From Salminus brasiliensis (taxonomy: Eukaryota), in assembly GCF_030463535.1 (NCBI RefSeq), contig NC_132885.1, positions 19,729,786 to 19,793,785 of the forward strand: a stretch of 64,000 nucleotides of DNA. Reading direction: 5' to 3'. The notes under the pieces are model-generated. The model worked only from the letters and a program-made list of their open reading frames with translations. It was not told where the DNA came from and did no database searches. The number at the start of each line of letters is the position of its first letter. Positions within the stretch are counted from its first letter, which is position 1. Shown piece by piece: positions 1,447 through 62,281 of the stretch. The translations under genes were made by a program, and so were the position numbers.

Positions 1447-1716
1447 ATGACCACGCCGGCTCTTCTGCCACTCTCGGGACGTAGGATACCCCACTCTGTC
1501 TCCAGGTGCCTCATCGTTCCCCCACCACAGAGCGACCTTGCGGCTCTCCGAGAAGTTTATTCTCCTCCTCATCCTCAGTGCCTTCATCACCCTTTGCTTT
1601 GGAGCGTTTTTCTTTCTCCCGGACAATTCCAAACACAAGCGCTTTGACCTGGGTTTGGAGGACGTTTTGATACCGCACATTGAGCCGGGGAAGGAAGGAA
1701 GACATAGCAGTGGCAG
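1447..1716 (+). CDS. man1a2: man1a2 coding exon 1: cytoplasmic tail plus type II signal-anchor TM segment
   Basis: ATG at 1447 gives MTTPALLPLSGRRIP, identical to the remembered N-terminus of vertebrate MAN1A2. From 1493 the next reading frame gives TLSPGASSFPHHRATLRLSEKFILLLILSAFITLCFGAFFFLPDNSKHKRFDLGLEDVLIPH, matching MAN1A2 SFPHHRATLRLSEKFILLLILSAFITLCFGAFFFLPD. The two segments are one nucleotide out of register in the C4 run at 1489-1492. Only the cag|GTCATA donor at 1716/1717 (phase 2) joins in frame to exon 2 (..HSSG-R-EEEE..). The consensus donor cag|GTGAGA at 1757/1758 is out of phase. Confidence 0.6.
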
Positions 1717-2040
1717 GTCATACACGGGCAAGGAGGACACGATGAGCATCGGCACAGGTGAGAGATTTTCAAATGGCAAAAGATATGGCAGCATTACATT
1801 TCAGGTTTCGACCACAGGGCTTCTCTTGACCAAGTACTTGGGGACGGACACTTCTAAGCACAGTGATACCACCAGCTGGTAGGTGTTTGCCAGTCTATGG
1901 GACGCCAGTGCAAGTAAAGCAGGTGCAACAGTGTTTCTGGGTTGTTTTTGTTTCTTTTTTAACACATTATTCCATATCCCCAAAGATATTCAGCCAAGAG
2001 GGTCTCTGTGATCAGAAACTTACAGTTGATGAAGGACTAA

Positions 2041-3167: not shown

Positions 3168-3190
3168 CCCCCCCCCCCCCCCCCCCCCCC
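3168..3190. repeat. C23 homopolymer
   Basis: 23 consecutive C. Confidence 0.95.
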
Positions 3191-14332: not shown

Positions 14333-14400
14333 CCCCCCAACCCCCCCCCCCCCCCCCCCCCTTTTTTTTTATTTTTTATTTTTTATTTATTTTTTTTTTG
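14333..14400. repeat. C-rich then T-rich homopolymer block (C6 aa C21 T9 ...)
   Basis: ccccccaa, then 21 C, then T runs. Confidence 0.9.
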
Positions 14401-19932: not shown

Positions 19933-19955
19933 GGGGGGGGGGGGGGGGGGGGGGG
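19933..19955. repeat. G23 homopolymer
   Basis: 23 consecutive G. Confidence 0.95.
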
Positions 19956-25564: not shown

Positions 25565-25823
25565 GGAAGAGGAGGAGAGCCTACGGGATAAGATCCGGGC
25601 GGATCACGAGCGGGCGCTGCAGGAGGCAAAGGAGAAGCTCCGGAAGTCCAAAGAAGAGCTGAGGGCAGAGATCCAGACAGAAAAGACCAAGGTGGCTGAG
25701 GACCTGAAAAAGAAAGAAGGACCCAAGCCTCTGCCTCCAGTGCCCATGCCCAAAGTGGTGGGGATCAATGATGGAGATCCTGGAGATCCTGATGTCAAAG
25801 AGAAACGGGACAAGATCAGAGAG
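25565..25823 (+). CDS. man1a2: man1a2 coding exon 2 (stem region)
   Basis: Acceptor tgcctttgcag at 25564. Translation (R)EEEESLRDKIRADHERALQEAKEKLRKSKEELRAEIQTEKTKVAEDLKKKEGPKPLPPVPMPKVVGINDGDPGDPDVKEKRDKIRE matches human MAN1A2 REEEERLRNKIRADHEKALEEAKEKLRKSREEIRAEIQTEKNKV...NKPLPPVPIPNLVGIRGGDPEDNDIREKREKIKE. Donor gag|GTGAGA at 25824, phase 0. Confidence 0.85.
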
Positions 25824-28274
25824 GTGAGACCTGTGTGTGTGTGAGTGATTGATTGATTGAGAGGTGTGTGACGGTATATGTATTCCTATAAAACTGTCAT
25901 GGTGCACAGGGGGGTCACAGTTTGGTGCACACAGTTGCACAGAGAACAGTATGATCATTTTAGATGTGCCTGCGCCACCTAGTAATCGTGTGATTGGTTT
26001 GGGCAGGTGCCAATACAGTAATCGCAGTAATCGATTGTTTTTTGTCTGCATCAGAGACCCTTAAGAAGAGGTTTTTACTTTCTTGCTTCCACCAGACAGG
26101 TCTGAACTCATTGGGACTCATTTTGGTCTGCTTGATTTTTATTTATTTATTTATTCATCATAAACATTCAGCACCCTTATTTAATTAACCTAGCGGTGAT
26201 TCAGACTTACAGTTACTTTATCTTTGTCCTGTCATTTTTTTTTTTTTTTTTTTTCATCTTTCAAGTGGCCTTCTGCTTGTTGATGGATTGGTTTCTCCAT
26301 AGGTAACCTTCTGCTCAGTGTTTCTGTATGTATTTGTGTATTATTATATACATGTGTAACTGTCTGCCTGGAATTCTGTTAATGCTTCATTTGTGCCAGA
26401 GGATATTATTGTCCCCAGAAGCTCTAGGTGATGCTTAGATTGTCTGCGATGTATTTCGCAGCTCAAGAGTGCTCAGGTTTTATTGTTGGGTGAGTAAATT
26501 GAGAATGAGACATTACTCTGTTGCGGTGGGGGTGTGCGTATGAGGATAGCGAGTCAGTGTAATTATTTTCTCCCTGTAGATTGTATTTCGGCTATGCTCG
26601 GTTAAGAGCAAACCTGAAATAGTTTTCCTGCTCATTCTCAGTTAATTACTTCTCATCATTTCCTTTTAAAAGGTACTTGGACTTGAACAGTTACAGCCCA
26701 TTTAATCTACGGCTGGCTTTGACTCAAACGCAGAATATCTGCAGATATAATTATCAGGCTTTGAAAATGCGGTCCTGCCTTAGATGAGAGTAACGCCGTG
26801 TGAGTTGGGACCAGTGGCTGATTTACTGCTTACTGAAAATAAAACTGACCGTTATGGATTTCTCCAGTTTCAAATGCTCAGGAGTCTTTGAGAAAATAAG
26901 TTGCAGCCTGACGCATTAACACATCGTCTGAGCTCAGACTGGCAGGAAGAAGTGGGTTAAAGACAGCCATGTTGGGGAATGTTGGCGAGGTATAGATGAG
27001 TTCTGTTTGGACTTGTCAGTTGGGCTTTCAGTGGACAATTTTGTTGTTTTATTTTTTTTTGTCTTTTCATTTGCTGCCTCTAAGGCACGAGGTACTAGCC
27101 AGTGGGCTGTGGATGATGAAGTAGCCATTTTGCATGAAATGTTACATTTCCCAGCCCATTATTTCTAAGTAGTCTGTTATTGCTAATTGGTTCTAATGAG
27201 TATTTAAGCTTGTATGGTTTGGTGCTCTTGGGAAATACAGGTTTTCCCCCTGTTGGGGTGAGCGTGTGTAAGTGTGTAAGTGGTTGGCCAAGATATCCGT
27301 TTCCCCAGGGGGTGAACGGTTCCATTGACCGTAAAGCCGGGATAAGTGGATGGCTGATGCAGGGCTTTTAAAGCTGCCCTAATCATGGCACTGAGATCTG
27401 CCGAGTCATAAAGAGACTCCAGCTATAGAGACCTGGGGTGAGAGGCTACTGACGAGCCATATGTCTGAGCATTATAACACCTCTCAGATGAGCCGTACAG
27501 ACGTAGGTAGGTGTGTGTGTGTTTTGTGTGTGAGCAAAAGAGACAGAGATGGTGAAATGTAGAATTTTGCTTTGCTCTGTTGTATAATGGGTCACATAAG
27601 GGGCTGCTGAGATCAGGAGATGCTGTCTATCCTGAGTTGCACTGGTGTGAATGCAGACAATCGCACACCTGCAGTATACCGTTGTCTAGTCGCACCTCAT
27701 GGCATTTGCCATTGGTGAGAGTATTGCAGGGATGGGGTGAAAGCAGCTTTCCAAAAAAAAGAAAAAGAAAAAGCAGCTTTCCTGCTTCACCAGCACTCAC
27801 CATGTAAGCTGAAGAAAGAGCCGGGAGTACTGAAAGGCAGCTCCTAACATACTGACTGTGGATCCTCTTATCTGCGGCTCCTTTCTCCAATACCAGTTTC
27901 AGCGTGGCAGGTAATGTGATCACACCACAGAAAAGCTGCCTAAACCAGAGACAACAAACATGTAGAAACCTCTGCACTAACTTTGCTCCTGGTTATAGTT
28001 TGGTACTTCAGGGAATGAGATATGGGTATGAGATACAGTAGTTATTTACTGGAAGTTTAGTAAATAGCATGTTTAGAGGCTCTAAATCACTTATTGTTTG
28101 AAAAGGAATAGCTAAAGTTTATTAGATGCGGTCAGTCGGTTCATCACATGGCCTTTCCCAACAGCAAATATAAACAAGCCATAGCCCTAGCGAGATATTT
28201 AAGGTCTGGAACCTTTAAGTCAAAGTAATCTGAGGGTGTTTTATCCTCTGCTCTCTCAGCTCTTCACAGTTACA

Positions 28275-30145: not shown

Positions 30146-30203
<58 letters not shown>

Positions 30204-30228
30204 TGTTTTTTTTTTTTTTTTTTTTTTT
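30146..30228. repeat. Compound (TG)28-T23 microsatellite
   Basis: tg run 30146-30202 followed by T23 at 30206-30228. Confidence 0.95.
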
Positions 30229-42364: not shown

Positions 42365-42466
<102 letters not shown>

Positions 42467-59138: not shown

Positions 59139-59327
<189 letters not shown>

Positions 59328-62258
59328 TAAGGTTGTGTCCAATTTTTTAAGGTTGAATAATCTGTCCCTGGTATCAGGTTATTATTGATTATTCACTGTG
59401 TGCCAGCAAGCTTGAAAAATCACCCCACTTCAGACGTCCCAGAAAAAAGGGGATTCATCACTTCAGCTTGAAGGAAAGGGCTTAGAATTGGCACAGGAGA
59501 TAGACGGCGGTGAAAGGTGTTGCTTAGATAACAGACATGAAATTTACTTTTAGTTTTCACACTGAAACAATAAAGCATCAACCTAATTTCCACCCCAATT
59601 ATAGTCATTTCTGATTCCCACCCAGTAGCTAGAACTCCGCCATGTGCTAGGAGAGTGAAAGCTAGCATGTGCTTCCTCAAAGGTTTCCAAGATTCTGTCT
59701 TGGACTTACTCCTAGACAGAGATGATTCTCTCCCCCTCCCCTCCTTTCTTCCCGCATTGGTAAGCACTAAAGTGCTGTGGCTAAGACGCGACTCGCTGAC
59801 TCATGAGTTGACAGCCATTTTCCACATTTTACATCATGTACTTCTCCACGAGCAGAGCAAGCAGGCCTGAAACCTGGGCAAGCTCTGAAAACGCTCGAGT
59901 TTTGCATTCTGTTTGAGTACGTTGGCACTGCGTGGACTTAAGCGTGGTAAGAGAGCAGTGAATATGACACATGGTGGTATCCAGGATACAGCACTAGCAC
60001 CATGGAAACAATGTAGACAGGGAGAGCTCTACCTACCACGCTGAAGAAAAGCCTCAAATGAGCAGGCAGGCTAAGGTTGAGCAGAAAATGGTAGGCAAAA
60101 TAACAGCCAGAGAATAGAGCCGTCCCAGAGAGAAGCCCCAGGGACCCCTTGATCCCCCGCTTTCAATATGGCACTGCCATTAAAGACACTTCTATCTGTC
60201 CATGCTCTCTCTGTCTACTGCTGTCTGTTCCACTATCTGTCTTTTTTTTTTTTTTTTTTTTTTCCCCTCTCCTTCATCAGATACGATGGAGTGCTGGTTT
60301 CTTTTTTTGCCCCATTGCAGAGCCTTTATGCCATCTTTTGTCTGGAGTCTGTAACATTAGTCTTGTCCTCCCTTGTCTTGTTCTTATTTCTGTTCTCGGC
60401 CTGGCTTTTTCTATACCTTGAGGTCCTCACATTTGGCTGTTTGGTATTGCAGGGGGTACACTAGTCTGAAGCTTTTCCTCGTTTCTTCCTCCCACACTTG
60501 TCGTTTCATCATTCTTTTGCCTTTTACATTTTCTTTTGACTTGCTGTGCCATGCCCTCTTTGTGTCTCTCTGACTGCTAATTATTGACCTTGTTCAGTTT
60601 GGCTCTGGACGTCAGCCAGTGCTGAGGGTCAGTAGGATCAAGGAAATTGATTATTTGGTTTGAAGAAGGAAAAAAGAAATCTGACATGCAGGAGCTGTAG
60701 ATAGAGATGTTGGAGGAATATGAGAGACGAACAGAGACCAGATGTAGACAAACCTTCGTTTGCTGCTTCCCACTTCAGCAGTCGGCTCTTGCCCCAGCAG
60801 TCTAATTCTGACTGGCGTTTCATTTGTATTATGTTGTCAGCTCTAGGCAGGAGGTACGTTTACCAGGGTCATTAGTGGTAACTACAATTAGGTCTTGTTT
60901 CTAGAAAAACATTTTCAAGAAAAGCTCTTTTAATGCTTTACTATTCATATTCCTTGGGTTGCATGATCAGAATTGGCCAGTTTATTGATTTTTTTTATCG
61001 TGAACATAATGTGAACCACGTGAGAGCTGCGGCTACAGCAGCTACCAGAATCACTTGATGTGACACAATTGAGTTCTGCTATTGAACTAAACCACCAGTG
61101 CTCCCGACACTAGGTGTTAAGGAGACTTAACACGACTCCTGCAACACAGGCAAAGCCAGCCACCACCTCTTTTTAAACTGCAGACAGTGTGGCCTCGCCG
61201 GGCAGCCGAGACACTCGGAGGAAGGCGCTAGTTCCCCAGCCCCGCCACACTAGCTAACCGACACCTGTGCTAGCCAACATCTCTTTAAGAGTGACGAGGG
61301 AAGAGAGCGCCATCTGCTGATGAGCAAGCGGCATGGCTTGGGATTCTTGCGACTCCTGGGCCATGGTGGCAGCACATTAGAGAACTACTGGCAACTTTTA
61401 AAGGAGGAGACATGCAGAAAGGCAGGAAAAACATCTTGTAAGTTGAGATGTCCATGTCAATTTATTGTCATTGAGCCTTGGGTGCCCTTAACCCTGCCAC
61501 TAGTGGTAACCACTTAGATTAGGTAGATATTAACTACTGCATACTATGATCACCCCACATGACCTGCCATCAGCCAGTTTTTCTGTTAAACAATCCAAAT
61601 TAACCATACAATGGTCAAAAGTGCTGCATGTCGAGTTTGTTAGCCTTTAAAGGTTGTGATGATTATAACCTTCATGAAAAAATAAAAAATAAACCTTGGC
61701 CAATCAGAAGTGAGCACCAAATGTGAAAAGTGTCACATCCAGACATCATAAATCCTCACACCCATGGGTTCTTTCTCTGGCTTTGAGCTCTGGCACTTAA
61801 CTCTACCCTAATTGCTGTGTATGCTTGGGGACAGAGCAGCTGCTTGACCTTAGCCTCCCACTGTTTGGCTCTTCGAGTACCTTGTGGTCACTTGGTGGTC
61901 AGGCACAAGCTATCTTCTCTCTCAAATTTTTTGCTGGCCTCTCCTATCCTCCAAGAGTTTGCTTCATATTTAGAACGTGCAAGTTTAAGTGTTTTTAGGA
62001 TTTTATAGTAGCTTTCATTTTCAGCAGAACTACGGGATCGTCTGCTCGCATGAATGTAAATGAGCAACTAAAACAACTAAAAATATCAGCTGCCGGCGCT
62101 TTGATTTTTGGAAGTCTGCAAGCCATTGATCTTGCGCTCAAATCCGACCGTTTGAATATATTTTTATAGAGACTCCACTGAGTGTGTCACTAAAGTTTAA
62201 AGACTGATTTAACGGGTCGTGATTAGGCTGCTGTACTGTGGTGAGTCACTGTTAGTGA

Positions 62259-62281
62259 CCCCCCCCCCCCCCCCCCCCCCC
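62259..62281. repeat. C23 homopolymer
   Basis: 23 consecutive C, followed by a (CT)/(TCTA) low-complexity stretch to about 62350. Confidence 0.95.

Follow-up and report, generated by a model that had tools for sequence, protein, structure and literature searches.

How the Golgi mannosidase gene man1a2 can be encoded by an exon whose conserved start codon opens onto a reading frame that soon closes is the question raised by the 64,000-nucleotide stretch of Salminus brasiliensis DNA analysed here (hereafter the window, positions 1–64000, which is free of Ns and free of soft-masking). The initial annotation of this stretch placed a single 1-nt frame break inside the first exon of the gene and offered an assembly error, a genuine frameshift allele and a non-canonical start as possible causes. 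Four coding exons of man1a2 were located by tblastn, in which a human MAN1A2 sequence served as a probe only:

Positions 1447–1757, forward strand: first coding exon of man1a2, coding part; 311 nt, a length equal to that of orthologues (from tblastn, orthologue alignments and the repaired translation).
Positions 25565–25823, forward strand: coding exon 2 of man1a2; 259 nt, (R)EEEESLRDKIR...KRDKIRE, acceptor tttgcag/G.
Positions 42365–42461, forward strand: coding exon 3 of man1a2; 97 nt, 32 residues plus (G), start of the GH47 domain.
Positions 59167–59285, forward strand: coding exon 4 of man1a2; 119 nt, (G) plus 39 residues.

The junctions of all four coding exons are canonical AG/GT sites, and exons 2–4, the start codon and every donor and acceptor are intact and in phase. 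Exon 2 opens at 25565 on the third base of a codon (G GAA GAG GAG GAG AGC, read as (R)EEEES). A Glyco_hydro_47 domain (Pfam PF01532) was matched at residues 191–261 of the conceptual product (profile positions 1–67 of 455, E = 1.8e-23), the remainder of the domain lying beyond the window, which holds the first four coding exons only. Identity was 92–98% to fish MAN1A2 (IB) proteins versus 44–49% to MAN1A1 (IA); judged by sequence, the gene is the orthologue of MAN1A2, the GH47 class I alpha-1,2-mannosidase IB, and not a MAN1A1 or MAN1C1 paralogue. The earlier assignment of the locus to man1a2 and its first coding exon is thus borne out by tblastn and the fish orthologues, and the report of intact exons 2–4 holds for their splice sites and phases alike. 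A protein homology search showed that MAN1A2 has been kept from sharks to mammals. The first coding exon (1447–1757) encodes the protein from its cytoplasmic tail through the transmembrane anchor to where the stem begins, and the type-II N-terminal signature, consisting of the MTTPALLPLSGRRIP tail and the RATLRLSEKFILLLILSAFITLCFGAFFFLPD anchor, is identical to that of orthologues in both of its parts, but these lie in two different frames. An Rfam scan of the whole window (1–64000) at the gathering threshold returned zero family hits.

The first change of frame lies close to the start codon and involves two features:

Positions 1447–1647 (including the TGA), forward strand: open reading frame from the conserved ATG, as the sequence stands; 66 codons, of which 15 are genuine residues (MTTPALLPLSGRRIP) and 51 are out of frame.
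Positions 1489–1492, forward strand: site 1, a CCCC run; one base more than the CCC, CCT or CCG of six of six orthologous loci.

The dead end of 66 codons that had been described downstream of the ATG at 1447 was found as stated: after MTTPALLPLSGRRIP the frame runs through unconserved sequence to its TGA, and further frame-1 stops follow at 1681–1683 and at 1705–1707 (TAG). Within the window the run sits in the context GGATA-CCCC-ACT, and it is here that the conserved reading moves from frame 1 to frame 2, which from 1493 gives the conserved continuation, (P)TLSPGASSFPHHRATLRLSEKFILLLILSAFITLCFGAFFFLPD... / (P)TLSPGASSFPHHRATLRLSEKFILLLILSAFITLCFGAFFFLPDNSKHKRFDLGLEDVLIPHIEPGKEG.... Frame 2 has a TGA at 1448–1450 and its first ATG at 1742, so that the C4 run, the conserved frame from 1493, the upstream TGA and the lack of an ATG before 1742 are all present as first reported. 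Deletion of one C from the run yields RRIP-TLSPGASS-FPHHR (...RRIPTLSPGASSFPHHR...), and the spacing that had been expected from this join is the spacing of every fish orthologue retrieved. The frame-2 block was matched by the human probe at E = 5.6e-32 (tblastn) and is identical to fish orthologues; taken as a sequence alignment, this conserved match is far beyond chance.

The lesion at site 1 is real in the sequence as given, but the view that it is the only one did not survive, since a second and opposite break, in a G2 run at 1712–1713, had been missed. The features around it are as follows:

Positions 1493–1713, forward strand: displaced block; 221 nt, frame 2 of which encodes TLSPGASSFPHHRATLRLSEKFILLLILSAFITLCFGAFFFLPDNSKHKRFDLGLEDVLIPHIEPGKEGRHSSG, identical to Astyanax mexicanus XP_049341361.1.
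Positions 1712–1713, forward strand: site 2, the run GG within AGT-GG-CAGG; one base fewer than the GGG, AGA or GGC that precedes CAGG in six of six orthologous loci.
Positions 1714–1757, forward strand: 3' end of the exon, where the ATG frame resumes; QVIHGQGGHDEHRH and 2 nt of an Arg codon, donor CACAG/GTGAGA (1757/1758).
Positions 1714–1722, forward strand: cryptic donor CAG/GTCATA (1716/1717); phase 2 in frame 2 as the sequence stands.

What the displaced block encodes runs from the last part of the cytoplasmic tail through the transmembrane anchor into the proximal stem. At site 2, between the TAG at 1705–1707 and position 1717, the conserved reading goes back from frame 2 to frame 1. Because exon 2 opens on the third base of a codon, the exon before it must end with two codon bases; at the donor 1757/1758 this phase fits the ATG frame alone (…QVIHGQGGHDEHRH-R/EEEES), and the frame must therefore shift back before the exon ends. 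Read in the ATG frame, the exon end agrees with the human LIHGPDEHRHR/EEEE and with fish sequences; read in the transmembrane frame, it would be ...TMSIGT-G, in phase mismatch with exon 2. It follows from the second break at 1712–1713 that removal of a single C yields no exon that splices in frame to exon 2 via the conserved donor. The two sites, +1 and -1, both fall in mononucleotide runs 222 nt apart, and their opposite signs leave the exon at 311 nt with both of its ends in the ATG frame. As written, the spliced coding sequence reads MTTPALLPLSGRRIP, then junk with three stops (the first at codon 67, and two more before the frame is recovered), then QVIHGQGGHDEHRHREEEES...; an uninterrupted frame leading from the ATG into the exons is absent from it, and MAN1A2 is not encodable by the sequence as it stands.

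To place both sites in a comparative setting, six orthologous loci were aligned, from the characiform Prochilodus magdalenae, from three catfish-like short-read contigs, from Cirrhinus molitorella and from Clupea harengus. All six were in frame at both sites, with one base fewer at site 1 (the comparison of homopolymer length among related species that had been proposed as a check) and one more at site 2, and both lesions are private to the window among the seven aligned loci. When proteins were searched with a 645-aa chimera made of the window's 262 residues and a carp C-terminus, the best cluster representative was from Chanos chanos, which reads IESGKEGRHNGGQVIIHG and whose whole gene spans 51 kb, and the closest cluster member was the Astyanax mexicanus RefSeq protein XP_049341361.1 (645 aa, gene span 164 kb), an annotation on GCA_023375975.1 that carries no LOW QUALITY flag. 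With both indels repaired, exon 1 was identical to XP_049341361.1 at 104 of 104 residues in the protein comparison, and repaired exons 1–4 at 260 of 262, the differences being A148V and T237S. These figures point to a characiform source very close to Astyanax, though probably outside the population or species of that RefSeq entry.

Measures of constraint gave a similar picture. In the repaired frame, dN/dS for the exon was 0.02–0.055 against four orthologues (about 0.02), and that of the displaced block 1493–1713 was 0.008–0.048, again against four orthologues. Eleven of the twelve window-private substitutions are synonymous; the remaining one gives Gly97, a glycine shared with the proteins of Astyanax, Prochilodus and Chanos. 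Signs of decay, namely raised dN/dS, lost splice sites or start codon, or extra stops in the correct frame, were found neither in the exon nor in exons 2–4. No Pfam family matched the junk peptides, and a search of 5.8 billion proteins gave no homologue of them. The 66-aa frame-1 ORF, the frame-2 ORFs, the half- and fully repaired exon-1 ORFs and the exon 2–4 ORFs were looked up by exact match without a hit in collections that are without this species' locus, and no paper linking man1a2 with Astyanax turned up in the literature search.

Within the window, then, the exon carries two indels in a homopolymer context that are absent from all comparators, and it shows no decay. We infer that the frame break is very likely the product of two homopolymer-length consensus errors, with a technical rather than a germline cause: the ±1 runs unique to the window, the intact repaired product and the lack of relaxed constraint together favour such errors. 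Assembly or polishing would have called a true CCC as CCCC at 1489–1492, leaving one extra C, and a true GGG as GG at 1712–1713, leaving one G missing. The 221 nt between the two errors would thereby be displaced by one base with the length and ends of the exon unaffected, and in the animal the exon would be expected to read straight through (MTTPALLPLSGRRIPTLSPGASS...GRHSSGQVIHGQGGHDEHRHR). A homopolymer-length error had been among the causes first put forward, and the orthologue comparison and the lack of decay support it.

Longer homopolymers in the window were also inspected. Four runs stop at exactly 23 bases (C23 at 3168–3190, C23 at 62259–62281, G23 at 19933–19955 and T23 at 30206–30228), with none longer, and the next-longest are T22 at 60242–60263, C21 at 14341–14361 and T20 at 26235–26254. 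A (TG)n microsatellite at ~30160–30205, beside the T23 run, exceeds 40 nt. The limit of 23 bases looks like a technical ceiling imposed on homopolymers during consensus building or polishing, and is an independent sign that they were handled poorly. Poly-C and poly-G tracts of such length are in any case unusual. Repeat copies within the window amount to one pair, 75% identical.

Homopolymer-length errors are described in two reports as the commonest residual error of long-read assemblies, one that creates spurious frameshifts and fragments genes (PMC8812927, PMC12007338). Set against such an origin here is the spacing of the errors, two of which fall within 222 nt while the window's remaining 475 coding nt are free of them; this clustering implies a locally poor consensus and not a uniform error rate. 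A further counterpoint is run length, since most platforms are accurate on runs as short as C3 and G3. A third is that one Ensembl-derived Astyanax model (P0131, A0A8B9HAT0) lacks precisely the 15 residues that follow site 2, which could be a problem of another assembly at that place or simply a poor model.

That model is one of three Ensembl-derived man1a2 models in related genomes in which the first coding exon has an abnormal 3' end. In P0131, QVIHGQGGHDEHRHR is missing (...HSSG/EEEES) and exon 5 is garbled; the Pygocentrus model P0128 reads ...HSGGQ/EESLRD; and the Electrophorus model P0103 reads GKEGPGQRAVLARGWRTRPDGDT, which resembles an out-of-frame translation. Two explanations present themselves: several draft assemblies are prone to error at this exon end, or there is an isoform made with the alternative CAG/GTCATA donor. 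For the 'partial' man1a2 model of Prochilodus, a frameshift as the underlying cause was ruled out by the Prochilodus DNA, which is intact.

Could both indels nevertheless be germline? Under that reading man1a2 would carry a null allele of very recent origin or be starting to turn into a pseudogene; in a more exotic version, two recoding events would rescue the full-length enzyme. We regard this as improbable. The lesions are present in the sequence as given, and they are of the frame-disrupting coding kind that a null allele would carry (two 1-nt indels); moreover, the repaired product is not quite that of A. mexicanus, with 2 of 262 residues different, and hence represents a separate lineage. 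If the indels were germline, the locus would yield a 66-aa peptide, and the mRNA would be expected to undergo nonsense-mediated decay. However, two independent frameshifts would be needed within 222 nt of an exon that has zero amino-acid change from Astyanax, with no other lesions, with splice sites intact and with dN/dS about 0.02. The three frame-1 stops between the indels mean that the second does not rescue the first, so no selective tie links the two events. As written, the mRNA would encode a 66-aa peptide without the membrane anchor, in a gene that vertebrates from sharks to mammals have retained; mouse Man1a2 knockouts die neonatally. A genuine frameshift allele, which the initial annotation had kept as an option, is much less likely now that there are two lesions and no other decay.

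More doubtful still is a mixed origin, in which one indel is erroneous and the other, most plausibly the G deletion at 1712–1713, is real and tolerated through the cryptic donor at 1716/1717, giving an enzyme whose poorly conserved stem is shortened by the 14 residues QVIHGQGGHDEHRH. Once site 1 is repaired, this donor does join exon 2 in frame (...HSSG-R-EEEES, with 14 residues lost), and the omission of this stretch from P0131 and P0128 shows that isoforms or models without the QVIHGQGGHDEHRH region exist. By contrast, the 41 nt supposedly skipped encode the conserved QVIHGQGGHDEHRH perfectly in the ATG frame, the conserved donor 1757/1758 is intact, and the Astyanax RefSeq protein has the stretch. 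In addition, P0131 is without the Arg that the junction predicts, and GTCATA is a weak donor. The cryptic motif is present in four of the six orthologous loci, where it is out of phase with exon 2, the exceptions being GTAATA in Prochilodus and a 3-nt insertion at the junction in Clupea; we found no sign that CAG/GTCATA at 1716/1717 is used.

Finally, it is extremely improbable that the indels are real and overcome in translation, by +1 slippage of tRNA-Pro on CCC-C at 1489–1492 and a -1 shift near 1712 or by a non-AUG start in frame 2: CCC-C formally permits P-site re-pairing in the +1 frame, and a CTG with A at -3 is present in frame 2 (1496–1498), but site 1 has neither a 0-frame stop nor a rare codon (the A-site codon is CAC), site 2 has no X-XXY-YYZ heptamer (AGU GGC AGG), downstream folds are no better than shuffled ones (z = -0.35, -0.12 and -0.29), no shift is conserved, both sites being in frame in six of six orthologous loci, the AUG at 1447, with A at -3, would capture scanning ribosomes, and two recoding events within one exon are, to our knowledge, unprecedented.

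The region upstream of the coding exon was examined as well, and one further feature was recognised there:

Positions 360–513 (5' boundary approximate), forward strand: probable non-coding 5'-UTR exon of man1a2; donor CACG/GTATGTGGA at 513/514.

The block 360–513 aligns to Prochilodus magdalenae sequence upstream of the man1a2 ATG, with the donor conserved. It contains an upstream ATG at 478 in good context (accATGG), and the short ORF that this opens differs from that of Prochilodus by a 4-nt indel, so the 5' block is not conserved as coding sequence. What had been called exon 1 is therefore probably the first coding exon but exon 2 of the transcript, preceded by an intron spanning 514 to ~1278. 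The interval ~180–1060, which covers the promoter, the 5'-UTR and the first intron, has an unusually high density of palindromic motifs of the type GCTAGC / CTAGCTAG (as at 361–392 and 870–900), which are partly conserved in Prochilodus (GCTAGCTAA.GT.AGCTAGCT). Two microsatellites were also seen, a (TCC) array of about 9.7 copies at 1061–1088 in the upstream intron and a (GAT) array of 11 copies at 2043–2075, about 290 nt into intron 1.

Alternative starts for the displaced frame were considered and rejected. An upstream in-frame start reached through splicing of the 5' exon (478–513) fails with either acceptor, AG at 1277–1278 or AG at 1279–1280, both of which give a stop before 1447, and an upstream start in frame 2 is likewise blocked by the TGA at 1448–1450. 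The non-AUG candidates CTG 1496 and TTG 1538 lie downstream of the AUG that has A at -3, and would still meet the second break. The suggestion of a non-canonical start, earlier ranked third, is thus unsupported, since CTG 1496, taken as the only near-cognate candidate, sits downstream of that AUG and would meet that break.

Taken together, these results indicate that the frame break is almost certainly not a real biological feature and fits the known class of homopolymer-length assembly errors. The window is best explained, on the sequence comparisons above, as the 5' third of a normal, functional man1a2 encoding Golgi alpha-1,2-mannosidase IB of family GH47. The only unusual thing about the anomaly is that its two errors, being opposite, leave the length unchanged. 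For this reason, checks on the terminal frames or on exon length modulo 3 miss them, and a reader or pipeline sees one only. The locus therefore merits a curation flag: automated annotation will truncate, mis-start or mis-splice man1a2 in this assembly, and similar damage at the same exon is already found in Ensembl-derived models of related genomes. The error pair and the homopolymer ceiling at 23 together suggest that the assembly would gain from re-polishing. If the indels were real, they would represent a natural loss, in a characid, of a conserved mannosidase that trims N-glycans in the Golgi.

Comparison with known systems points in the same direction. Programmed +1 frameshifting, as in antizyme OAZ1 and in yeast Ty1, EST3 and ABP140, shares with site 1 a +1 shift at a run that permits re-pairing of the P-site tRNA; unlike those cases, the exon described here has no A-site stop or hungry codon, no stimulatory structure and no conservation among orthologues, and would need a second, opposite shift. 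Known homopolymer errors of long-read, pyrosequencing and semiconductor platforms are matched in that the changes are ±1 in mononucleotide runs, lie in sequence under strong purifying selection, are absent in relatives and are undone by a trivial repair that restores the ORF; they differ in that the runs here are short (true length 3), of opposite sign and close together. After that repair, the product has the same tail, single anchor, stem, GH47 start and exon phases as MAN1A2 XP_049341361.1.
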